From the NCBI RefSeq assembly GCF_030013205.1, contig NZ_CP122648.1: a stretch of DNA of 64,000 nucleotides. One strand, given 5' to 3'. Origin of the DNA: Escherichia coli (GTDB lineage Bacteria > Pseudomonadota > Gammaproteobacteria > Enterobacterales > Enterobacteriaceae). The notes under the pieces were generated by a model, which saw only the letters and a program-made list of their open reading frames with translations, did not search any database and had not been told where the DNA came from. A program made the translations under genes and the position numbers. This document shows, in pieces, positions 8,580 to 48,007 of the stretch (within the stretch, counting starts at the first letter, position 1; each line of letters begins with the position of its first letter).

Positions 8580-8771
8580 ATGCTTGGTAAGGTATTTTTT
8601 GTGGTTTTGTCATGTTCTTTGTTATTAAACCCACTAACTACCTATGCTAGAAATTATCCCTGTTCAGGGAAAAAGGGAGGTGTTTCTCACTGTACCTCAG
8701 ATGGCAAATTCGTTTGCAATGATGGAACTATTAGTAAATCCAAAAAAATCTGTACTAAAAACTCACGATAA
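8580..8771 (+). CDS. Small secreted Cys-rich protein (63 aa), cargo gene in the cI-int operon
   Basis: Strong GGGAGG ribosome-binding site 6 nt upstream; N-terminal signal-peptide-like hydrophobic segment followed by a Lys/Cys-rich mature region. Confidence 0.5.
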
Positions 8772-8959
8772 CTTTTGCTTTTATATCTGCGCCTAAAATA
8801 AAAATGAGCCGCAGGTTAACCGCAAAAGTTACATGCTCACATAGCAAAAAGAATAGCCAACTTAATTATGGCTTCAGTGAGATGTATGGTCGTAGGATTT
8901 CATACATTGACACTGGTTATACATACAGTGAAAATGCTCTCTACTGGAGGGCATTTTTT

Positions 8960-10012
8960 ATGGCAGTACGAAAACTCACCACAGGGAAATGGCTTTGCGA
9001 ATGTTACCCCGCCGGACGTAATGGGCGTCGTGTGCGTAAACAATTCGCCACCAAAGGCGAAGCACTGGCCTTCGAGCGATACACCATGGGGGAAATAGAA
9101 GCAAAGCCCTGGCTGGGCGAATCAGTGGATCGTCGGACACTGAAAGATATGGTTGAGCTATGGTTCAAATTACATGGCAAATCTCTTACTGCCGGACAGA
9201 ATGTCTACAACAAGCTGCTGTTGATGGTTGACGCCTTGGGAAATCCCCTTGCAACTGATCTCACCTCAAAAATGTTTGCTCACTATCGCGATAAACGCCT
9301 TACTGGTGAAATCTACTTCAGTGAAAAATGGAAGAAAGGAGCAAGCCCAGTTACTGTTAACCTGGAGCAAAGCCATCTAAGCAGCGTTTTCAGAGAACTT
9401 TCCCGCCTGGGTGAATGGACACTTCCAAACCCATTAGAGAAGATGCGCAAATTCACTATCGCAGAAAAGGAAATGGCATGGCTTACACATGAGCAGATTA
9501 TCGAATTACTGTCTGACTGCAAACGTCAGAACCCAATTCTGGCACTGGTAGTCAAGATATGCCTAAGCACAGGCGCACGCTGGCGAGAAGCAATAAATCT
9601 TACCCGCTCACAGGTGACCAAATACCGAATTACCTTTGTAAGAACGAAGGGGAAGAAAAACAGGAGCATCCCTATCAGTAAAGAGCTTTACGAAGAGATC
9701 ATGGCGCTTGATGGGTTCAATTTCTTTACAGACTGCTATTTTCAATTTTTATCCGTGATGGAAAAAACGTCTATCGTGCTCCCTCGCGGTCAACTGACAC
9801 ACGTTCTGCGCCATACGTTTGCGGCGCATTTCATGATGTCGGGTGGAAATATCCTTGCTTTGCAAAAAATCCTCGGACATCACGATATAAAAATGACTAT
9901 GCGTTACGCACATCTGGCACCGGATCATCTGGAAACGGCGCTCCGTTTCAATCCTCTGGCAACGCTGCCAAGTGGCGACAAAGTGGCGGCAGCGGTTGGC
10001 ATTACCCCGTAA
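8960..10012 (+). CDS. int: Tyrosine integrase (P2/186 family)
   Basis: ORF 8804-10012; start set at internal Met (MAVRKLTTGKWLCECYPAGRNGRRVRKQF...) typical of P2-family integrases; C-terminal HxxR...Y catalytic region (LRHTFA...MRYAHL). Confidence 0.85.
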   Translation: MAVRKLTTGKWLCECYPAGRNGRRVRKQFATKGEALAFERYTMGEIEAKPWLGESVDRRTLKDMVELWFKLHGKSLTAGQNVYNKLLLMVDALGNPLATDLTSKMFAHYRDKRLTGEIYFSEKWKKGASPVTVNLEQSHLSSVFRELSRLGEWTLPNPLEKMRKFTIAEKEMAWLTHEQIIELLSDCKRQNPILALVVKICLSTGARWREAINLTRSQVTKYRITFVRTKGKKNRSIPISKELYEEIMALDGFNFFTDCYFQFLSVMEKTSIVLPRGQLTHVLRHTFAAHFMMSGGNILALQKILGHHDIKMTMRYAHLAPDHLETALRFNPLATLPSGDKVAAAVGITP

Positions 10013-10116
10013 TAACCACCACTGACCACCACATTAAGTTATTGTTTTTCATCTAACTTATTGTTTTTATTAACCCATTTAGATAAGTGGTTTTTTTGTT
10101 GCCTGAAATTTATCTA

Positions 10117-21575: not shown

Positions 21576-21590
21576 CACAAGGATGGATGT

Positions 21591-21977
21591 ATGGGTGTGT
21601 ATAAGGCAAGACGATTCAGCCAAAGCACGAAAAAACTTGGTATTCACGATAAAGTTCTCATGGCTGCCGCTGAAGAAGTGATGCAGGGCATATGGGAGGC
21701 TGATTTAGGTAGCGGTGTCATCAAAAAACGTTTACCCCTCCAACAAGGAAAGAGTGGTGGAGCCAGAACAATTATCTTTTTTAAATCAGCAAATCATGTG
21801 TTTTTTTATGATGGTTGGTCCAAGAGTGGTCTAAGCAGTAAAGGAACCAAAGAAATCGAAGATGATGAACTGGCGGCCTACAAAAAAATGGCAAATGCAT
21901 TTCTGGCCTTTAGCACTAAGCAAATAGAGGATTTGATCGAAACTGGCTTTTTGATTGAGGTGAAAAATGAGCGATAA
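21591..21977 (+). CDS. Type II toxin-antitoxin RelE/ParE-superfamily toxin-like protein
   Basis: 128 aa ORF with KSGGARTIIFF core resembling RelE/ParE-fold toxins; 11-nt overlap with downstream HTH gene; not in this position in the K-12 gene order as I recall it. Confidence 0.6.
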   Translation: MGVYKARRFSQSTKKLGIHDKVLMAAAEEVMQGIWEADLGSGVIKKRLPLQQGKSGGARTIIFFKSANHVFFYDGWSKSGLSSKGTKEIEDDELAAYKKMANAFLAFSTKQIEDLIETGFLIEVKNER

Positions 21978-22296
21978 ATTACAAATGATGCTGGAAGATG
22001 CAAAGGAACTGAATGCACTGGGCCTGATGTCTGATAGTGAAGTTGATGCCATTGCCGTCATGGTCAAAGCTCGTGAAGTCAGCGCCCGTATAGCCAAAGT
22101 CAAATCAATGACGGGTGAAGAGATCAAAGCCATCCGCACCCGATACGGCATGTCACAATCCGTGCTGGCACATACAATGGGAATGTCAAAAGAAAGTGTC
22201 TCGAAATGGGAACGTAATGAAATAAAACCGAGCGGCCCGGCATTACGTATTTTGAATACATTGGCAATAAAAGGGCCGGAAGTTTTTGCAAAGTAA
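21967..22296 (+). CDS. HTH (XRE-type) DNA-binding antitoxin-like protein
   Basis: 109 aa ORF; C-terminal HTH (MSQSVLAHTMGMSKESVSKWERNE) with N-terminal extension; coupled to upstream toxin-like gene. Confidence 0.6.
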   Translation: MSDKLQMMLEDAKELNALGLMSDSEVDAIAVMVKAREVSARIAKVKSMTGEEIKAIRTRYGMSQSVLAHTMGMSKESVSKWERNEIKPSGPALRILNTLAIKGPEVFAK

Positions 22297-22325
22297 AATG
22301 TTTGCAAATGATTTACCACATTCAT

Positions 22326-29637: not shown

Positions 29638-31509
29638 TTATCTACGCATGAATGCGTATTCTGATTGTGGTTGTGCGACGTAATGCCCCGGCCCGACGCA
29701 TTGCAACGAGACGGCTGCCACCTCTTCGCCACGCAGATGAATATTGCTGGGAAGATCGTCCGACAGCAGTACACGCTGCGGTCGTTGTCGGGACGGTTCA
29801 GCGACCGGAACTGCCGCCAGTAATTTACGCGTATAAGGATGCTGCGGGTTTTCGAAGACCGCGCGCCGTGGACCAATTTCAACAATTTGTCCGAGATACA
29901 TCACCGCCACACGATGACTAATCCGCTCTACCACGGCCATATCGTGGGAGATAAACAGATACGCAATGCCGAAATCACGCTGGAGATCGAGCAACAAGTT
30001 GATAATCTGCCCGCGAATAGAAACATCCAGCGCCGAAACGGCTTCGTCGGCAATGATCACTTTTGGATTCAATGCCAACGCGCGAGCAATGCAGATGCGC
30101 TGGCGCTGACCGCCGGAAAACTCATGCGGGTAACGCCAGGCATGTTCAGGTAACAGGCCCACGCGCTCCAGCAACCACGCAACGCGTGCAGCCGCTTCTT
30201 TACCTGTCAATAAACCGTGTACGCGCAGCGGTTCGATAATCGAATCACCGATGGTCTGACGTGGGTCCAGCGAAGCGTAAGGGTCCTGAAAAATAAACTG
30301 AATATCCCGGCGCAATGCCTGAAGTTTGCCGGGTGACAAGGTATCGATTCGCTGACCGTTAAAGATAATTTCGCCGCCCTGCGATTCGACCAGGCGCAGC
30401 AACGCCCGCCCGGTAGTGGATTTACCGCTGCCAGACTCGCCCACCAGCGATAGCGTTTCGCCAGGCCAGAGATCAAAACTGACTTTCTCAACGGCATGCA
30501 CTTCCCGCGTTACGCGATTCAACAAACCGCTGCGCAAAGGGAAACGGGTGACCAGATTACGCACCCGTAAAACAGGTTCGCCATCCACCACCGTTTTCTG
30601 CTCGATGGGTGGTTCCTGTTTCGCTGGATGTTCAAGCGATATCAATGGGAAACGTCGGGGATAATCTAACCCTTTCATCGCACCAAGTTGCGGAACAGCA
30701 GCTAACAGCGCACGGGTGTAAGGATGTTGCGGTGCATGAAAAATCTGTTCGACGCTACCCGTTTCCACCGCCTCGCCCTGATACATCACCAGTACCCGAT
30801 CGGCAATCTCTGCCACCACGCCCATATCGTGAGTGATAAAGATAACGCCCATCGACATCTCTTTTTGCAATACTTTGATTAATTGCAGGATCTGCGCCTG
30901 AATAGTGACATCCAGCGCGGTGGTTGGCTCATCGGCAATCAGCACCGCCGGGCGGCATGACAGCGCCATCGCAATCATCACTCGCTGGCGCATCCCGCCA
31001 GAGAGTTGATGCGGATAACGTGAAAGGATGGTTTGTGCCTCCGGAATGCGTACCTGATCCAGCATCCGCTTCGCCTCGACCATTGCTTCTTCACGACTGG
31101 CGTTTTGATGCAGACGAATAGATTCAGCAATCTGTTCACCCACAGTAAATACCGGGTTCAGCGATGTCATCGGCTCCTGAAATATCATCGCCATATCCGC
31201 ACCGCGCACATGGCGCATTTGTGCAGCGCTCTGCTCGCTAAGTTCAATCACTTCACGACTGCGCCGCCGCAACAGCATTTGATCGCACTGCACTAAACCG
31301 CCCGCCTGTTCCAACAAGCGCATCAATGCCAGCGCAGTCACTGACTTACCAGAGCCGGATTCGCCAACAATTGCCAGCGTCTCACCGCGTTGCAGGCTAA
31401 AAGAGAGATTGCGGACCACAGCTATTTTCTGCTGGTCCTGCATAAAGGCAATATTCAGATTTTCAACCGCCAGCACATCACCGGCATCAAGTTCATCACT
31501 GTGTGGCAA
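29638..31509 (-). CDS. gsiA: Glutathione ABC transporter ATP-binding protein GsiA (tandem ABC domains)
   Basis: Two Walker A motifs (GESGSGKS twice); start placed at in-frame TTG 10 nt downstream of the iaaA stop, giving 623 aa; the first in-frame ATG would overlap iaaA by about 120 nt. Confidence 0.85.
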
Positions 31510-32461
31510 CGGTGTCCCCTTTTTCACGGTAGATACCGGTGGTTGGCGTATCGCCTGCGTAGCCCCAGGCGCGATACATTCCTTCGGTGTTAAACGGTAG
31601 CGCGACATTCCCTTCATGGTCGATAGCGATTAAGCCACCGCTACCGCCAAGCGCAGGGAGTTTTTCCATTACTACCCGCTCGCAGGCTTCCGCGAGACTT
31701 AATCCGCCGTAATCCATTAACGCGGCGATGTCATATGCCGCCAGCGCGCGGATGAAGACTTCGCCCGTGCCGGTACAAGAAACTGCCACACTGGCGTTAT
31801 TGGCGTAGCATCCGGCACCCACTAAGGGACTATCGCCAACTCGTCCGGGTAATTTATTGGTCATTCCGCCCGTGGACGTGGCTGCCGCCAGATTGCCGTC
31901 TAAATCCAACGCCACGGCCCCCACGGTGCCCATTTTCTGTTTTTCATCCAGTGGCGCACCGCTATGGTCGAGGTCTGTTGCCCCTTCCTCACGCGCTGCC
32001 ATTAGTTGTTCATAACGCAAAGGCGTGGAGAAAATCTCCGGTGAGACGCGCTCCATGCCATGAGCAAACGCAAAATTTTCTGCCCCTTCGCCAATCATCA
32101 TCACATGCGGGCTTTGCTCCATCACCAGCCGGGCGGCAAGAACCGGATTACGCAGATGACTAACGCCCGCCACCGCACCGGCTTTCAGGGTGTTACCATC
32201 CATTACACAGGCGTCCAGTTCATGGGTTTCATCACGCGTAAAGACAGCGCCAATTCCGGCGTTAAACAGTGGACACTCTTCCAGCAGACGCACCGCTTCC
32301 GTCACCACATCCAGCGCACTTTCGCCCGCTTCCAGCATTTTCTGCCCGGTTTCAACAATGGCAGACAGCGCCTCGATATAGCGTAATTCCTGTTGCAGAC
32401 TCATCTGCGCGCGGCTAATTGCACCTGCGCCGCCATGAATTGCAATGACTGCTTTGCCCAT
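31496..32461 (-). CDS. iaaA: Isoaspartyl dipeptidase / L-asparaginase IaaA (Ntn hydrolase)
   Basis: 321 aa recognised sequence. Confidence 0.9.
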
Positions 32462-32664
32462 AGTATTCGTCCATTAAGGGTGGCTCGCCACTTTTGCTAT
32501 AAATATCAGAATTTTTATGAATTACTCATTCAATTTTTGAATATAGAAAGATGGATATGGCATGTAAAGGCAGGAGCCAGCGCTACGCCCGAGGTGGCAT
32601 ACAGTCTGTGGCGTTTTTCTGACATAATAGGCAAATTCGATTTTGCCTCCGCAGGAGTGTTTTC

Positions 32665-39967: not shown

Positions 39968-41227
39968 ATGACTTTTTCCTGTGAGACGCTGCCCACAGAT
40001 GCGAAAGCGGCTATCCGAGAGATGAAAGCTGCGCTGCGGGAACAGCTCGGTGATGTGCAACAGGTTTTCGATACACTCTCTGCAAAAATCGAAACGCGTG
40101 TTGCTGAAATCGATGCCCTAAAAGCGCAATGGCTGCCGGTTTGGCCGGAAGTTTCTTATAGTGATATTGCCGCAGGTACAGTAAGCGATGCCACTCGCAA
40201 TGAAATTAAGCGTCGCGGCTGTGCAGTCATAAAAGGCCATTTCCCTCGCGAGCAGGCGCTGGCGTGGGATCGTGCCATGCTCGATTATCTTGATATCAAT
40301 CATTTTGATGATGTTTATAAAGGCCCTGGCGACAGTTTTTTCGGCTCGCTGGAGGCTTCTCGTCCCGAAATCTATCCCATTTACTGGTCGCAAGCACAGA
40401 TGCAGGCGCGGCAGAGCGAAAATATGGCTGCTGTGCAATCTTTTCTAAACCGACTGTGGACGTCTGAAAGCAACGGCAAACAGTGGTTTGATCCTGATAT
40501 CAGTGTAATTTATCCAGACAGGATCCGCCGCCGCCCTCCAGGTACCACATCTAAAGGCCTGGGCGCACATACCGATTCTGGTGCGCTGGAACGGTGGTTA
40601 TTACCCGCTTATCAGCGCGTTTTTGCCAATGTGTTTAATGGTAATTTCGATGATTACGATCCCTGGGATGCTACACACCGGACCGAAGTCGAAGAGTACA
40701 CGGTAGATAACACTACCAAATGTTCGGTGTTCCGCACGTTTCAAGGCTGGACGGCGCTCTCTGATATGTTATCGGGTCAGGGATTGTTACATGTGGTGCC
40801 TATCCCGGAAGCGATGGCGTATGTTTTATTGCGCCCGCTGCTGGATGACGTACCGGACGATGAACTGTGCGGGGTTGCACCTGGCAAAGTTCTGCCCATT
40901 TCAGAGAAATGGCATCCACTACTGCTTAAAGCGCTGACTTCCATTCCCGCGATAACAGCAGGGGATTCCGTCTGGTGGCACTGCGATGTGATTCACTCCG
41001 TCGCGCCAGTAGACAATCAACAGGGTTGGGGCAACGTGATGTATACCCCTGCTGCGCCAATGTGCGAGAAAAATCGGGCTTATGCACACAAAGTCAAAAT
41101 GGCACTGGAAAAAGGCGCATCGCCGGGCGACTTCCCGCGCGAGGACTATGAAACAAACTGGGAAGGACGCTTTACGCTTGCCGACCTCAACATTCACGGT
41201 AAGCGAGCGTTGGGCATGGATGTTTGA
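39968..41227 (+). CDS. ybiU: DUF1479-family protein YbiU
   Basis: 419 aa recognised sequence. Confidence 0.85.
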   Translation: MTFSCETLPTDAKAAIREMKAALREQLGDVQQVFDTLSAKIETRVAEIDALKAQWLPVWPEVSYSDIAAGTVSDATRNEIKRRGCAVIKGHFPREQALAWDRAMLDYLDINHFDDVYKGPGDSFFGSLEASRPEIYPIYWSQAQMQARQSENMAAVQSFLNRLWTSESNGKQWFDPDISVIYPDRIRRRPPGTTSKGLGAHTDSGALERWLLPAYQRVFANVFNGNFDDYDPWDATHRTEVEEYTVDNTTKCSVFRTFQGWTALSDMLSGQGLLHVVPIPEAMAYVLLRPLLDDVPDDELCGVAPGKVLPISEKWHPLLLKALTSIPAITAGDSVWWHCDVIHSVAPVDNQQGWGNVMYTPAAPMCEKNRAYAHKVKMALEKGASPGDFPREDYETNWEGRFTLADLNIHGKRALGMDV

Positions 41228-41466
41228 GAGTTAATGGAAGTGAATTGATGTGGGATTAAGAAAATCGATTCGACGTTACTCAGATTGCTGACAAGTGCGC
41301 TTTGTTAATGCCTGATGCGGTGTTAACGCCTTATCTGGCCTACAAAGTCCAGCAGATTCAATATATTACAGGTACTGCCAGGCCTGATAAGCGTAGCGCA
41401 TCAGGCAATTTTGCATTTGTCATCAGTTTCAGTAGCCCTGACCATATCAGGGCTACTGATAATAAC

Positions 41467-43059
41467 TTACTCGATCCCTTTACTACGCAGGTAATCTTCG
41501 TAATTACCGCTAAAGTCGATCACGCGTTCCGGGGTGATTTCCAGAATACGGGTCGCCAGGGAGCTTACAAACTCACGGTCGTGTGAAACAAAGATCAGCG
41601 TGCCCTGATACAGTTCCAGCGCCATGTTCAGCGACTCAATAGATTCCATATCCAGGTGGTTGGTTGGTTCGTCCATGATCAGAATGTTCGGCTTCTGCAT
41701 CATTAACTTACCAAACAGCATCCGCCCTTTCTCCCCACCGGAAAGCACTTTCGCTGGCTTTTTGATGTCGTCCTGGCTGAACAGTAAACGACCGAGAATG
41801 CTGCGTACCGCCTGCTCGTCATCGCCTTCCTGCTTCCACTGGCTCATCCATTCGAACACGGTCAGATCATTTTCGAACTCATATTCATGGTCCTGGGCGT
41901 AGTAACCAATGCGCGCGTTCTCAGACCATTTTACGGTGCCGCTGTCCGGTTGCAGATCGCCCACCAGCGTTTTCAGCAGCGTTGATTTACCGACGCCGTT
42001 GGTACCCAGTACCGCCAGTTTTTCACCGACTTCCAGCAGCAGGTTGAGATTTTTAAACAGCGGACCGTTATCAAACCCTTTGGTCAGACCTTCCACTTCC
42101 AGCGCGTTACGGAACAGTTTCTTATCCTGTTCAAAACGGATGAACGGGTTCTGACGGCTGGAGGCTTTCACCTCTTCCAGTTTGATTTTATCAATCTGGC
42201 GCGCGCGCGAAGTTGCCTGGCGAGATTTCGAGGCGTTGGCGCTAAAGCGGCTAACGAAAGATTGCAGCTCAGCAATCTGCGCTTTCTTCTTGGCGTTATC
42301 AGCCAGCAGACGCTCACGCGCCTGGGTCGCCGCCGTCATGTACTCATCGTAGTTACCTGGATAAACGCGGAGCTCGCCGTAATCCAGATCCGCCATGTGG
42401 GTACAAACCATGTTAAGGAAGTGACGGTCGTGCGAGATGATGATCATGGTGCTGTCACGCTCGTTCAGCACCTGTTCCAGCCAACGAATGGTGTCGATGT
42501 CGAGGTTGTTGGTCGGTTCGTCGAGCAGGAGAATGTCTGGATCAGCAAACAGCGCCTGCGCCAGCAGCACACGCAGCTTCCAGCCAGGAGCAACTTCACT
42601 CATCGGGCCGTAGTGCTGTTCCACTGGAATTCCCACGCCAAGCAACAGTTCACCGGCGCGAGCTTCCGCAGAGTAACCGTCCATTTCGCCGTATTTCACT
42701 TCCAGATCGGCCACTTTATAGCCGTCTTCCTCACTCATTTCCGGCAAAGCATAGATGCGGTCGCGCTCCTGCTTCACTTCCCACAATTCTTTATGCCCCA
42801 TGATCACCGTATCCAGCACAGTGAACTCTTCAAAGGCAAACTGATCCTGACGCAGCTTACCAATGCGCTCGTTGGGATCGAGGGAAACGTTACCCAACGT
42901 CGGCTCTAAGTCGCCGCCGAGGATCTTCATAAAGGTGGATTTACCACTACCGTTCGCGCCAATCAGGCCGTAACGGTTGCCGCCGCCAAATTTGACGGAA
43001 ATGTTTTCAAACAACGGCTTACTGCCGAACTGCATGGTGACGTTACTGGAAACTAACAC
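41467..43059 (-). CDS. ybiT: ABC-F family ATPase YbiT
   Basis: 530 aa with two ABC ATPase domains. Confidence 0.92.
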
Positions 43060-43277
43060 AGGCGTATCCTGAAAAGAGATATGACAAACCGCGCATTATG
43101 CCATAAGTCTGAAAGAAGATCCTGCTCCTCGCTTAAGGTCTACACTCAAGCCAAAGGCAAAAAATGTGATTTCGTACACATCTGATTTCACTGTGAGCTG
43201 GAATGAACTTATAATGCGCTTCCAATACTCTAATATTCTCAACCCAATGGCCTGCCAGGCACAAAATCTCGCTTAAC

Positions 43278-44198
43278 ATGAATATGAAATTGAAAACATT
43301 ATTCGCAGCGGCCTTCGCTGTTGTCGGCTTTTGCAGTACCGCCTCTGCGGTAACTTATCCTCTGCCAACCGACGGGAGTCGCCTGGTTGGTCAGAATCAG
43401 GTGATCACCATTCCTGAAGGTAACACTCAGCCGCTGGAGTATTTTGCCGCCGAGTACCAGATGGGTCTTTCCAATATGATGGAAGCGAACCCCGGTGTGG
43501 ATACCTTCCTGCCGAAAGGCGGTACTGTACTGAACATTCCGCAGCAGCTGATCCTGCCGGATACCGTTCATGAAGGCATCGTCATTAACAGTGCAGAGAT
43601 GCGTCTGTATTACTATCCGAAAGGGACCAACACCGTTATCGTGCTGCCGATCGGCATTGGTCAGTTAGGCAAAGACACGCCTATCAACTGGACCACCAAA
43701 GTTGAGCGTAAAAAAGCAGGCCCGACCTGGACGCCGACCGCCAAAATGCACGCAGAGTACCGCGCTGCAGGCGAACCGCTTCCGGCTGTCGTTCCGGCAG
43801 GTCCGGATAACCCGATGGGTCTGTATGCACTCTACATCGGTCGCCTGTACGCTATCCATGGCACCAACGCCAACTTCGGTATCGGCCTGCGTGTAAGTCA
43901 TGGTTGTGTGCGTCTGCGTAACGAAGACATTAAATTCCTGTTCGAGAAAGTGCCGGTCGGTACTCGTGTACAGTTTATTGATGAGCCGGTAAAAGCGACC
44001 ACCGAGCCAGACGGCAGCCGTTATATTGAAGTCCATAACCCGCTGTCTACCACCGAAGCCCAGTTTGAAGGTCAGGAAATTGTGCCAATTACCCTGACGA
44101 AGAGCGTGCAGACAGTGACCGGTCAGCCAGATGTTGACCAGGTTGTTCTTGATGAAGCGATCAAAAATCGTTCCGGGATGCCGGTTCGTCTGAATTAA
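43278..44198 (+). CDS. ldtB: L,D-transpeptidase LdtB
   Basis: 306 aa, signal peptide, YkuD domain with catalytic SHGCVRL. Confidence 0.92.
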
Positions 44199-44218
44199 TC
44201 GTCAAAACGTAAAACAGA

Positions 44219-44245
44219 GGCGGACTCATCATCCGCCTTTTTTAT
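44219..44245 (+). terminator. Rho-independent terminator after ldtB
   Basis: GGCGGACTCATCATCCGCC hairpin followed by T6. Confidence 0.7.
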
Positions 44246-44255
44246 TTGCCAGACC

Positions 44256-45374
44256 CTACCAGGCCGGGAGCATAACGAATAAAACGTATCCCACCAGCGC
44301 CGCCCACAACAGCATCGGTATCGAATAAAGATGAAAACGCCACCAGATACGGCGATCGTTCGCCATCCGTAACGCAATCAAATTTGCCAGCGATCCGGGT
44401 AATAAACCAAAGCCCCCCACGTTTACCGCCCATGCCAGTAATAAAGACGGCGGTACATAATTGAGCAGCAAAATGGTACTCGGCACGTTACTGATCACCT
44501 GCGATAAACCGATTGCCGTTAACCATAACCCGGGTTCAGATAAATGACTCACGTTAGCCAACACGCCTTGCAACGCTGGAAGCTGGGTCAGTAAATGGAC
44601 GTCGATAAACATCGCCATAAATACCAGCAGCAGCGTCCAGTCCACACTAAGCACCACGCGACGTGCCAGCAGCGCAAAGCCCACCGCCACAATCACCAGT
44701 CCCCACAGCTCTTGTTTTAACTCCAGCGCCATCAGAAAGACGATATACAGCCCCAGACAACTCCACACCAGCCGCGGTTTCCACTCTGGTGTTTGCACCC
44801 CCGTATGGTATTGCAGCGTCTTTCCAGGGAAACAACACCAGCACAGGAGCAGGAGTGTCAGCATCATTGCGCCAGCCAGCGGTGCCATTTGGGCAATAAA
44901 TCCGGCAAACGAAAGACCAGAACGTCCCCAGATAAGAATATTTTGCGGGTTGCCAATTGGCGTCAGTAGCGAACCAGCGTTGACTGCCAGCGCCTCAAAA
45001 ATAATCAGCCGATTAACCGGGATCTCACACAGTCTTTTTAGCGTGATAGTCAGCGGAACAACTATAAACAGCGCGACATCGTTGGTCAGAAAGGTAGAAA
45101 GCAGCGCCGCCGCCAGCACCATAAACATCGCCAGCCGACGCTCCGTAGCAAAGCGGCGCACCATTTTGCGCCCCAGCACATCAAAATAACCACTTAGCTC
45201 CACACCTTTAGTCAGCAGCATCAGGCCGCTTAAGGTGATGATGGTGTGCCAGTCGATAGCAGCAGGCCAGGATTTCGGTGCAAAGGGAACAAAAAAACTT
45301 AATCCGATGCCAACAAGAATTAATAACTGAAAAAAACGATCGCCTTGCAGCGTGCGTAAAAAAGGCAGGCTCAT
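44256..45374 (-). CDS. ybiR: Inner membrane transporter YbiR
   Basis: 372 aa polytopic membrane protein. Confidence 0.88.
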
Positions 45375-45838
45375 TTGGCACCGTGTTTCTGGGTAAACAA
45401 ACGAAAGGCATCCAGCGTCTCTTCACTAACATGGTGCTCCATGCCTTCCGCGTCGCGACGGGCGATTTCCGGACTGACGCCCAACACCAACAAGAAATTT
45501 TCGACTATCTGATGTCGCTCGCGGCTTTCCTGCGCCAGTTTCTCTCCTTCTGCCGTTAAAAACACGCCACGCCAGGGGATCATTTCAATCAGCCCCATGG
45601 TTGCCAGCCGCTTAAGCATTTTCGCCACCGTCGGTTGCGAAACCCCCAGACGAGCAGCCATGTCCACCTGACGAGCTTCCCCCACTTCCCTGATCAAGTC
45701 AGAAATCAGCTCAACGTAATCATCAATAAGCTCGCGCCGATGCGCCTCTCTGACCTGGCGGAACCCTTCAACGTGCTCTTCCACGTTCACTAACTGCGTC
45801 ACTTTTTTTGCTGTTGGCGTACCTGCGCGACGACTCAT
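45371..45838 (-). CDS. mntR: Manganese-responsive transcriptional regulator MntR
   Basis: 155 aa DtxR-family regulator. Confidence 0.92.
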
Positions 45839-45939
45839 TGTGCTTCCTCATTTTGGTGACGCATACCTAGCGTTCTCATTTCGTGCGCACATTGTAAACC
45901 AGAGTTGCGAAGGTACAAAAAATTAACGTTTTAGCAATA

Positions 45940-45954
45940 GCTATATAATATAGC
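45940..45954. promoter_or_regulatory. Palindrome GCTATAT-A-ATATAGC upstream of mntS; candidate MntR operator or promoter element
   Basis: Perfect 7-bp-arm palindrome about 70 bp upstream of the mntS start. Confidence 0.35.
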
Positions 45955-46023
45955 CTGTGCTATATCTGTATGTAATGCAATCATCCCTCAAGGATCGACG
46001 GGATTAGCAAGTCAGGAGGTCTT

Positions 46024-46152
46024 ATGAATGAGTTCAAGAGGTGTATGCGCGTGTTTAGTCATTCTCCCTTTAAAGTACGGTTAATGCTGCTCTCTATGTT
46101 GTGCGATATGGTCAACAACAAACCGCAGCAAGATAAACCTTCCGATAAATAG
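46024..46152 (+). CDS. mntS: Small protein MntS (42 aa)
   Basis: ATG...TAG ORF encoding MNEFKRCMRVFSHSPFKVRLMLLSMLCDMVNNKPQQDKPSDK; missing from the supplied ORF track because it is below the size cutoff. Confidence 0.85.
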   Translation: MNEFKRCMRVFSHSPFKVRLMLLSMLCDMVNNKPQQDKPSDK

Positions 46153-46423
46153 CGGCGTCGCGGTACGCCGCTTCACTCCTGCTTTTATGCAGGCACAACG
46201 CGTTTTGGTCTGAAAAACCCCACTTTTTGTCGGATTTGCAATCCCCTTCGCAAAAGATTTGTTCGTCAGTAGTTGACCTGAACGGCGGCTCGCTCTATCT
46301 TCTTGCAGCCCTGCGTATATTGCGGCTCGCGGATGCGGACCCCTTTCCCCTCTTCACGCACTCTTGCAGGTATTGACCCTTGACGCCAGGGTAAGCACAT
46401 GGCGTTTGTTACGATAGTGGCAT

Positions 46424-48007
46424 ATGAATTTAACCCTCAAAGAATCGCTTGTTACCCGTAGCCGGGTATTTAGCCCGTGGACTGCGTTCTACTTTTTACA
46501 GTCGCTATTAATTAACCTCGGCTTAGGTTATCCCTTCAGTTTGCTCTACACCGCTGCGTTTACGGCTATTTTGCTTTTGCTATGGCGAACATTGCCTCGC
46601 GTACAAAAAGTTCTGGTCGGTGTCAGTTCGCTGGTGGCGGCTTGTTATTTCCCTTTTGCTCAGGCCTACGGCGCGCCTAACTTCAATACAATGCTGGCAT
46701 TGCACTCCACCAATATGGAAGAGTCGACCGAAATCCTGACGATTTTTCCGTGGTACAGCTACCTGGTCGGCTTATTTATTTTTGCGCTCGGCGTAATAGC
46801 AATAAGGCGGAAAAAAGAGAGTGAAAAAGCGCGCTGGAATACCTTCGACAGCCTGTGTCTGGTATTCAGTGTGGCGACATTTTTTGTTGCTCCCATGCAA
46901 AACCTGGCCTGGGGCGGCGTATTTAAACTGAAAGATACCGGCTATCCGGTATTTCGTTTTGCTAAGGATGTCATCGTCAATAATAACGAGGTGATTGAAG
47001 AGCAAGAACGGATGGCAAAACTTTCCGGAATGAAAGATACCTGGACGGTCACTGCCGTTAAGCCGAAATATCAGACCTATGTGGTGGTGATCGGTGAAAG
47101 CGCGCGTCGCGATGCCCTCGGTGCCTTTGGCGGTCACTGGGACAATACCCCGTTTGCCAGCAGTGTTAACGGTTTGATATTTGCTGACTACATTGCCGCC
47201 AGTGGCTCCACGCAGAAATCGCTTGGCTTAACGCTCAATCGCGTAGTCGATGGCAAACCACAGTTTCAGGATAACTTTGTCACCCTGGCAAATCGCGCGG
47301 GCTTCCAGACCTGGTGGTTTTCCAACCAGGGCCAAATCGGCGAATACGATACCGCCATCGCCAGCATCGCCAAACGAGCAGATGAAGTGTACTTCCTGAA
47401 AGAAGGTAATTTTGAAGCAGATAAAAATACGAAAGACGAAGCGTTACTGGATATGACCGCTCAAGTGCTGGCGCAAGAGCACTCGCAACCGCAGCTGATT
47501 GTTCTGCATCTGATGGGCTCGCATCCGCAGGCCTGCGACAGGACACAAGGCAAATACGAAACCTTTGTGCAATCGAAAGAAACGTCGTGCTATCTCTATA
47601 CCATGACGCAAACGGACGATTTACTGCGTAAGCTGTACGATCAGTTACGCAACAGCGGCAGCAGCTTCTCGCTGGTTTACTTTTCTGACCACGGTCTGGC
47701 CTTTAAAGAGCGCGGCAAAGACGTGCAATACCTTGCCCATGATGATAAATATCAGCAGAATTTCCAGGTGCCTTTTATGGTCATTTCGAGCGACGATAAA
47801 GCGCATCGGGTGATTAAAGCCCGCCGCTCTGCCAATGACTTCTTAGGCTTTTTCTCCCAGTGGACGGGAATTAAAGCGAAGGAAATTAACATCAAATACC
47901 CGTTTATATCTGAGAAGAAAGCCGGGCCGATATACATCACCAACTTCCAGTTACAGAAGGTGGATTACAACCATCTCGGAACCGATATTTTCGACCCGAA
48001 ACCTTAA
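46424..48007 (+). CDS. opgE: Phosphoethanolamine transferase OpgE
   Basis: 527 aa, N-terminal TM domain plus sulfatase-like domain. Confidence 0.9.
   Translation: MNLTLKESLVTRSRVFSPWTAFYFLQSLLINLGLGYPFSLLYTAAFTAILLLLWRTLPRVQKVLVGVSSLVAACYFPFAQAYGAPNFNTMLALHSTNMEESTEILTIFPWYSYLVGLFIFALGVIAIRRKKESEKARWNTFDSLCLVFSVATFFVAPMQNLAWGGVFKLKDTGYPVFRFAKDVIVNNNEVIEEQERMAKLSGMKDTWTVTAVKPKYQTYVVVIGESARRDALGAFGGHWDNTPFASSVNGLIFADYIAASGSTQKSLGLTLNRVVDGKPQFQDNFVTLANRAGFQTWWFSNQGQIGEYDTAIASIAKRADEVYFLKEGNFEADKNTKDEALLDMTAQVLAQEHSQPQLIVLHLMGSHPQACDRTQGKYETFVQSKETSCYLYTMTQTDDLLRKLYDQLRNSGSSFSLVYFSDHGLAFKERGKDVQYLAHDDKYQQNFQVPFMVISSDDKAHRVIKARRSANDFLGFFSQWTGIKAKEINIKYPFISEKKAGPIYITNFQLQKVDYNHLGTDIFDPKP

Follow-up and report, generated by a model that had tools for sequence, protein, structure and literature searches.

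In overlapping, translationally coupled gene pairs of operons, the Shine-Dalgarno sequence (SD) and the start codon of the downstream gene are located inside the upstream coding sequence, and the stop of the first gene lies near the start of the second. Overlaps of 4 nt (ATGA) or 1 nt are common in such pairs. The iaaA-gsiA pair of Escherichia coli resembles them in that both genes are on the same strand, the SD and the start codon of gsiA are inside iaaA, and the iaaA stop is near that start. On the other hand, its overlap is of 14 nt and coupling is, in this case, a proposal.

The closest described system is gsiA from E. coli K-12 (b0829, formerly yliA; NP_415350.2). In the K-12 record U00096.3, gsiA extends over 867520..869391 and iaaA over 866568..867533; the same TTG start, the same 14-nt overlap with iaaA and the same length of 623 aa are found there as in the DNA analysed here. 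The ATP-dependent import of glutathione or glutathione disulfide is assigned from the literature on yliABCD/gsiABCD of K-12 (for example, PMC11719327). Searches of the literature for the gsiA start codon, or for gsiA together with iaaA, gave nothing relevant. The TTG start is already known, as it is the standard annotation in K-12, in RefSeq and in the NCBIfam model.

This work covers the iaaA-gsiA junction in a window of 64,000 nucleotides from E. coli, for which an original prediction had proposed that gsiA starts at a TTG codon and not at an ATG located upstream. GsiA from K-12 and from the window show a few amino acid differences further in (for instance, N11 in K-12 and D11 in the window), the start site being identical.

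Gene layout at the iaaA-gsiA junction

The main features of the junction are the following:
31496..32461, minus strand: coding sequence of iaaA, isoaspartyl/beta-aspartyl peptidase (ORF list, NCBIfam NF007589, PGAP, K-12)
31498-31496, minus strand: TGA stop of iaaA (sequence)
29638..31509, minus strand: coding sequence of gsiA from the TTG, 623 aa plus stop (ORF list)
31507..31509, minus strand: TTG initiation codon of gsiA (sequence, ribosome profiling, relatives)
31496..31509, minus strand: stretch of 14 nt shared by both genes, in which the last iaaA codons (V A T Q stop) overlap the first of gsiA (M P H S D) (sequence, K-12, PGAP)
31617..29638, minus strand: ATG-initiated ORF in the gsiA frame, 659 aa (ORF list)
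31630..31632, minus strand: in-frame TAA, upstream limit of the open gsiA frame (sequence)
32540..32568, minus strand: promoter-like site TTTACA-17-TATATT upstream of iaaA (consensus scan; weak evidence, the match count not being above shuffled controls)

iaaA is the first gene of the iaaA-gsiABCD cluster, and its product matches NCBIfam NF007589 with 711 bits over profile positions 1-321 of 321. The product of gsiA is the ATP-binding subunit of a glutathione ABC transporter and contains two ABC ATPase domains. The genomic context agrees with this identity: the PGAP annotation of the aligned strain gives the order gsiD, gsiC, gsiB, gsiA, iaaA, where gsiB codes for the binding protein and gsiC and gsiD for the permeases, and iaaA and gsiA are adjacent in 73 of the 80 loci with an IaaA relative. 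The presence of an internal gsiA promoter within iaaA was also considered and rejected, since, from the iaaA start to that of gsiA, the consensus scan gave zero matches on the minus strand.

The distances at the junction are as predicted except for one. The ATG is placed exactly 36 codons upstream of the TTG (31509-31507), and the overlap of its ORF with iaaA, given originally as about 120 nt, measures 122 nt (31496-31617). However, the TTG had also been located 10 nt after the iaaA stop, which is wrong because both genes are on the minus strand, where a higher coordinate means upstream: the TTG sits inside iaaA, 8 nt before the TGA, and there is an overlap of 14 nt instead of a gap. It appears that plus-strand coordinates had been taken as the direction of the genes. 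A start codon about 11 nt past the iaaA stop is the arrangement of Enterobacter, Lelliottia and Kluyvera, not of this window.

Evidence for the TTG as the start codon of gsiA

GsiA is with high confidence translated from the TTG at 31509-31507 (minus strand) as a protein of 623 aa, with its ribosome-binding site inside iaaA, and the 36 codons upstream are not part of it. This choice of start codon, which upholds the main claim of the original prediction, is supported by the annotation and the family profile, by ribosome profiling, by the geometry of the SD and by comparative data.

Related to the annotation, RefSeq PGAP gives gsiA identical coordinates and the same start in a strain with no sequence difference at the junction. 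The protein scores 1375.1 bits against NCBIfam NF007613 (GsiA equivalog; cut-off 1077), and positions 1-623 of the 623 of this profile align to residues 37-659 of the ATG-initiated ORF, that is, to the TTG-started protein. The profiles of the paralogues DppD, OppD, YejF, SapD and CntF/CntD begin only at residues 48-49 of the same ORF; the tandem ABC ATPase domains that the profiles delimit, in two stretches each, are of DppD/OppD type (about 48-313) and DppF/OppF type (about 345-627). Public collections contain the exact 623-aa protein, named GsiA, on 260 contigs, and the exact 659-aa product was absent from a collection of 15 billion proteins.

The TTG is preceded by a good SD:
31516..31521, minus strand: SD-like AAGGGG with a 6-nt spacer to the TTG, within the last iaaA codons (duplex energy, conservation)

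Its pairing with the 3' end of 16S rRNA reaches -7.8 kcal/mol, which places it in the top 2-4% of the 20-mers of the window, and it is the best and the only good match among all the in-frame candidates: -1.5 kcal/mol was obtained for ATG31617, -3.0 for GTG31527 and -3.0 for GTG31476, and the -4.8 kcal/mol of ATG31608 corresponds to a site without spacer. An AAGGGG or AAGGAG motif upstream of the start is kept in Escherichia, Citrobacter, Leclercia, Enterobacter, Lelliottia and Kluyvera. The idea of an RNA structure hiding the gsiA start was dropped, as the folds around it were not significant (z = 0.10 for 75 nt and z = -1.38 for 151 nt) and their arms were, by eye, unpaired in Citrobacter.

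The junction was aligned in 25 Enterobacterales loci, and the start codon could be compared in 21 alignable Enterobacteriaceae loci. In all 21 the codon homologous to the TTG is an initiation codon (TTG in 13, GTG in 5 and ATG in 3). The N-terminus PHSDELDAG had been described as conserved; this holds for MPHS-x-E-L, with which the 623-aa product begins and which is kept in Enterobacteriaceae, and does not hold for DAG, which varies.

Experimental evidence comes from tetracycline-inhibited ribosome profiling (TetRP) in K-12, whose sequence equals that of the window from -108 to +3 around the TTG. Ribosome profiling had been suggested as a check on the start, and TetRP places its peak exactly at the TTG (PMC4909307 Table S2): row 8 of this table reports a new yliA site 33 nt upstream of the 2006 start (Tables S2/S3), with depths in the three samples of 46.3, 140.5 and 70.6 at the TTG and of 0, 0 and 3.0 at the old site. 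Other data sets did not reproduce this in vivo footprint of initiating ribosomes. INRI-seq gave, in vitro, 0 CPM at the annotated TTG in five of five replicates, the transcript being in the pool at 151 CPM, and the in vivo Ribo-RET (retapamulin) value for the gsiA TTG listed in the same table is 0 (PMC9825163 Table S2). Such nulls are common, as INRI-seq misses 30% of annotated starts and Ribo-RET 82%. Besides, no N-terminal GsiA peptide is given for yliA in the "N'-peptide found" column of PMC4909307 or in the TRAINSPOTTER N-terminomics supplements.

Other possible start codons

Four further features of the gsiA frame were considered:
31615..31617, minus strand: upstream in-frame ATG of the 659-aa ORF, rejected as a start (no SD, absent from some relatives)
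31510..31617, minus strand: apparent N-terminal extension of 36 codons, which codes only for IaaA residues
31525..31527, minus strand: in-frame GTG located 6 codons before the TTG (product of 629 aa; ESD39780.1), rejected
31474..31476, minus strand: in-frame GTG, 11 codons downstream of the TTG (612 aa), used in the 2006 K-12 annotation and superseded

Translation from ATG 31617 would yield a GsiA of 659 aa and an overlap of 122 nt, the first 36 codons using a second reading frame within iaaA. It is true that ATG is the commonest start codon, that the gsiA frame is open from 31632 and that this ATG is present in 11 of the 13 TTG-start loci (Escherichia and Citrobacter, with the window and L001 counted). 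Nevertheless, the ATG lacks an SD and is dictated by the iaaA His-Glu codons (CAT GAA), so that it is absent from E. albertii (CAC CAG), Leclercia and Enterobacter sp. 10-1. The length of the open frame is not beyond chance: in the same alternative frame of the large ORFs of the window a stop occurs about once per 20 codons, open stretches of at least 40 codons make up 10.6% of the stretches, and a random position falls inside one of them 34% of the time. The pattern of substitutions is also contrary to a coding extension. In 11 Escherichia/Citrobacter sequences, the 108 nt that precede the TTG contain 37 variable sites, 30 of which are third positions of iaaA codons; read in the gsiA frame, the codon differences there are 23 synonymous versus 762 non-synonymous, and in the iaaA frame 709 versus 80. 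Past the TTG, the counts for the gsiA frame are 625 synonymous and 403 non-synonymous differences. Over 31510..31617, translation in the iaaA frame gives a mean pairwise amino acid identity of 0.96, against 0.62 for the gsiA frame. The proposed check on the conservation of the 36 codons thus finds no coding constraint in the gsiA frame. From genus to genus the spacer varies in length by 1 nt and therefore the upstream frame is shifted; seven Enterobacterales loci (L013-15, L019-20, L022, L024) have in-frame stops at 0-5 codons before the gsiA start region, and in Kluyvera the open stretch upstream of the gsiA start contains no other start codon. As the extension is, in addition, beyond the GsiA profile and every paralogue profile, and its exact product is missing from the public protein collections, initiation at this ATG is highly improbable and already largely refuted. 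Both ATG 31617 and ATG 31608 were rejected as starts on SD, conservation and substitution pattern. A minor extended isoform from either of them in Escherichia/Citrobacter, made beside the main product of the TTG, is likewise very unlikely. The TetRP search was limited to 60 nt around the 2006 start and ATG 31617 is 141 nt upstream of it, outside that range (PMC4909307), and the frame is open in all the Escherichia/Citrobacter loci examined; but these are the same open frame that chance would give and the same extension devoid of SD and of amino acid conservation, and ribosomes elongating on iaaA would presumably occlude an internal site of this kind.

The two GTG codons fare no better, and both were rejected on conservation, SD and TetRP. 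Initiation at GTG 31527, giving 629 aa, is in frame and used by one GenBank record (ESD39780.1), yet Citrobacter has GGG in its place, and E. albertii and a further genome named E. coli have GCG; the GTG also has no SD and falls outside the GsiA profile. It is, moreover, within the TetRP search range, and the table holds no second candidate site for yliA/gsiA (PMC4909307), which makes this start scarcely credible. A protein of 612 aa from GTG 31476, with the residues preceding it left untranslated, was the annotated form in U00096.2, and GTG is a commoner start codon than TTG. There is little probability in its favour, as the TetRP depth is 0/0/3 at this site versus 46/140/71 at the TTG (PMC4909307), an SD is lacking, several Escherichia/Citrobacter relatives carry GTA or GTT instead, and the annotation was moved to the TTG in U00096.3. 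Besides, the proteins of Enterobacter, Lelliottia, Kluyvera and Cedecea keep the MPHS-x-EL stretch that it would exclude, and in these genera iaaA overlaps none of this stretch or only its first base.

The importance of the TTG start is solely one of annotation quality: choosing the longest ATG-initiated ORF adds 36 spurious residues to GsiA and a false overlap of 122 nt. The locus is also a clean worked example of how the codon positions of substitutions tell a genuine start apart from an ATG that arose by chance in the adjacent gene. As to the finding itself, it is correct but ordinary, and no open biological question rests on it.

Origin of the overlap and translational coupling

With the TTG as start, GsiA is the ATPase subunit of the GsiABCD glutathione importer, translated from the second gene of a putative iaaA-gsiA co-transcript with an overlap of 14 nt. 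Its ribosome-binding site (AAGGGG, 6-nt spacer) is embedded in the last iaaA codons, and the 36-codon stretch is an open alternative frame of iaaA, its ATG being a by-product of the iaaA His-Glu codons.

The gsiA genes of Enterobacter, Lelliottia, Leclercia and Kluyvera share with the window the iaaA-gsiA order, the MPHS-x-EL N-terminus, the AAGGGG/AAGGAG SD and a homologous start codon, which is GTG or ATG there in contrast to TTG here. Their iaaA ends 8 codons earlier (IY(R/K)E stop), and in Enterobacter, Lelliottia and Kluyvera gsiA starts about 11 nt after the iaaA stop, whereas in the window it starts 14 nt inside iaaA. The codon of interest is the following:
31520..31522, minus strand: AAA (Lys) codon of iaaA at the position of the iaaA stop of the relatives (junction alignment, 25 Enterobacterales loci)

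Enterobacter, Leclercia, Lelliottia and Kluyvera have TAA or TAG at this position. Loss of the stop at AAA 31520..31522 adds 8 residues (KGDTVATQ) to IaaA and thereby creates the overlap with gsiA. As judged from the aligned sequences, the overlap is derived: an ancestral iaaA TAA, directly before the GGGG of the SD, became AAA in the Escherichia/Citrobacter lineage. The pair thus illustrates how a short gene overlap arises by loss of a stop codon.

The TTG is a weak start and the iaaA stop follows it by 8 nt, so that ribosomes terminating on iaaA probably help the initiation of gsiA. The geometry is that of coupling, as the overlap is on the same strand and the SD (31521-31516) is inside iaaA, and coupling would keep the output of the ATPase low and tied to iaaA. 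The isolated gsiA fragment from -30 to +150 gave no initiation signal in vitro, which fits coupling and also a weak TTG site. That initiation became strictly dependent on iaaA-terminating ribosomes once the stop was lost and the 11-nt gap turned into the 14-nt overlap is a more speculative proposal, and a rather doubtful one; if true, it would explain why the isolated start region is silent in vitro despite the in vivo peak. The 4-nt (ATGA) type of overlap is found at this same junction in several Burkholderiales loci.

The start of gsiA and its position relative to iaaA

The gsiA gene is read from a TTG codon whose SD sequence is embedded in the end of iaaA. This start is already known: it is that of the current reference annotation; one in vivo profiling data set supports it, as does strong comparative evidence. 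The original prediction had reached the same TTG but was slightly wrong in placing it 10 nt after the iaaA stop. As a higher coordinate is upstream on the minus strand, the codon is not 3' of that stop; its place is within iaaA, 8 nt ahead of the TGA, which gives the two genes a 14-nt overlap (31496-31509). The window sequence bears out other details: the TTG is exactly 36 codons 3' of the first ATG, and the overlap of the ATG-started ORF with iaaA, put at about 120 nt, measures 122 nt.

Features of the iaaA-gsiA junction, with, for each candidate start, the energy of pairing between its upstream 20 nt and the 16S rRNA 3' end
32461 to 31496, minus: iaaA, TGA stop at 31498-31496
31632-31630, minus: in-frame TAA closing the gsiA reading frame upstream
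31617, minus: candidate start ATG, 659-aa ORF ending at 29638; -1.5 kcal/mol, without SD
31608, minus: candidate start ATG, in frame; -4.8 kcal/mol, without spacer
31527, minus: candidate start GTG, in frame; -3.0 kcal/mol, without SD
31509-31507, minus: candidate start TTG, in frame, with a product starting [10 protein letters not shown]; -7.8 kcal/mol, AAGGGG at 31521-31516, 6-nt spacer
31476, minus: candidate start GTG, in frame; -3.0 kcal/mol, without SD

The pairing value of the TTG is reached by only 2-4% of the 20-mers of the window. At its end, iaaA carries two successive in-frame TGA codons (CAG TGA TGA, 31493-31498, minus strand); in Citrobacter werkmanii (relative's locus L007) the first is CGA, and IaaA terminates at the second (...ATQR).

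Annotation and start-site profiling

The iaaA-gsiA junction was found in 5,425 of 5,426 complete E. coli genomes. In a strain with identical junction sequence, PGAP starts gsiA at the TTG and has it overlap iaaA by 14 nt, and the K-12 MG1655 annotation gives gsiA at 867520..869391 (NP_415350.2) and iaaA at 866568..867533. The exact 623-aa protein, named GsiA, is present on 260 contigs in public collections, where the exact 659-aa form had no match. The 629-aa form from GTG 31527 corresponds to one public record, ESD39780.1 (protein record P0010; window 29638-31527, minus strand), named in GenBank 'putative phosphonate C-P lyase system protein PhnK'; start and name alike are likely mis-annotated in this record.

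Nakahigashi et al. (2016) mapped K-12 starts by tetracycline-inhibited ribosome profiling (TetRP; PMC4909307). In row 8 of their Table S2, yliA, the earlier name of gsiA, is given a new start, the TTG, which lies 33 nt upstream of the GTG annotated in 2006; the depth is 46.3/140.5/70.6 there versus 0/0/3.0 at the old site. This site agrees with the 2014 re-annotation, and the result is applicable to the window because its sequence matches that of K-12 at every base from -108 to +3. TetRP looked for initiation within 60 nt of the old start and so did not directly cover ATG 31617. No N-terminal peptide of GsiA was found in PMC4909307 or in the N-terminomics supplements searched. As for the zero values that INRI-seq and Ribo-RET give at the TTG (PMC9825163), nulls at annotated starts are common, given that these methods confirm 70% and 18% of them, respectively.

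Coding potential of the upstream extension

The length of the ATG-started ORF is no more than chance: the large ORFs of the window, read in this alternative frame, have a stop about every 20 codons, open stretches of at least 40 codons are 10.6% of all open stretches, and a random position falls within one 34% of the time. The upstream ATG itself arises from the iaaA His-Glu codons (CAT GAA). The NCBIfam GsiA equivalog NF007613 (623 positions) matches residues 37-659 of this ORF and the profiles of paralogous ATPases (DppD, OppD, YejF, SapD, CntF/CntD) start at residues 48-49, so that the 36 extra residues have no counterpart in any family.

An IaaA scan with one genome per species gave 80 loci, 73 of them with a gsiA homologue directly after iaaA. 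In the Enterobacteriaceae loci with an alignable GsiA N-terminus, a start codon always stands at the position homologous to the TTG: 13 loci have TTG there (Escherichia, Citrobacter, Enterobacter sp. 10-1), five have GTG (Enterobacter, Lelliottia, Kluyvera) and three have ATG (Leclercia, Cedecea group). Seven Enterobacterales loci, including Mixta and Mangrovibacter with a different GsiA N-terminus, have in-frame stops that precede the gsiA start region by 0-5 codons; in Kluyvera the open stretch upstream of the start holds no alternative start codon. The upstream ATG is missing from E. albertii, Leclercia and Enterobacter sp. 10-1. The SD-to-start spacer differs by 1 nt between genera, a shift of the upstream frame that coding sequence would not tolerate.

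Substitutions were analysed in a gap-free alignment of 11 Escherichia/Citrobacter sequences over the 108 nt upstream of the TTG. Of the 37 variable sites, 30 are iaaA third positions, which are second positions in the gsiA frame. Synonymous and non-synonymous codon differences number 23 and 762 in the gsiA frame and 709 and 80 in the iaaA frame, with mean pairwise amino-acid identities of 0.62 and 0.96, respectively; therefore, the extension codes for IaaA only. Downstream of the overlap, the gsiA frame has 625 synonymous and 403 non-synonymous differences, the usual pattern of coding sequence.

Origin of the overlap and proposed mechanism

In Enterobacter, Leclercia, Lelliottia and Kluyvera, IaaA ends in ...IY(R/K)E, with TAA or TAG directly 5' of the SD G-run, whereas Escherichia and Citrobacter have AAA at that stop position (31522-31520 in the window) and their IaaA continues with the C-terminal eight residues KGDTVATQ up to the TGA inside gsiA. 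This comparison concerns window 31496-31522 (minus strand) and relatives' loci L011 and L013-L018. The 14-nt overlap is thus a derived state, produced by stop-codon loss in iaaA.

Both genes are probably co-transcribed from upstream of iaaA: a consensus scan, in itself weak evidence, gave a promoter-like site at 32568-32540 and none between the iaaA and gsiA starts. Ribosomes terminating at iaaA probably help gsiA initiation, because the iaaA stop is 8 nt past a weak TTG; the in vitro null, obtained on an isolated fragment, is compatible with such help but is not proof of it. Local RNA structure prediction at the start region gave no significance.

Other observations in the window

A degraded P2-like prophage adjoining rcdA occupies the left end (1-10087), with genes for acyltransferase, tail fibre, baseplate, a frameshifted tail gene I, CI repressor and integrase (8960-10012), and a truncated tail/CII junction. 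Porcine ETEC strains, ETEC4067 among them, match this stretch at 100% identity. K-12 homology runs out within the 3' end of the sRNA gene rybB, of which just the last ~10 nt are left beside rcdA; RybB had no Rfam match in the window.

ARAGORN called an 85-nt tRNA-Gly(GCC) at 63888-63972 (minus strand), and Rfam at gathering threshold found no tRNA in the whole window. Synteny with NZ_CP062824.1 was observed to 58995 and, if continued, would place the call within the fiu coding sequence; a false positive is the likeliest reading.

Between rimO and dgcI (about 21590-22300), the aligned strain's annotation has genes for a RelE/ParE-family toxin and a helix-turn-helix antitoxin, with about 98% identity to the window. 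NZ_CP062824.1 carries a three-gene cassette of ~5 kb between ybiU and ybiT (LacI-family regulator, MFS transporter, GH31 glycosidase), from which the window is free (about 41214-41471; the alignment skips reference 41232 to 46476). The 501-nt iaaA-gsiA junction (31300-31800) is 100% identical to NZ_CP062824.1 and the surrounding 31 kb (10087-41214) only 97.8%, as if the two strains were related in a mosaic (recombinant) way.
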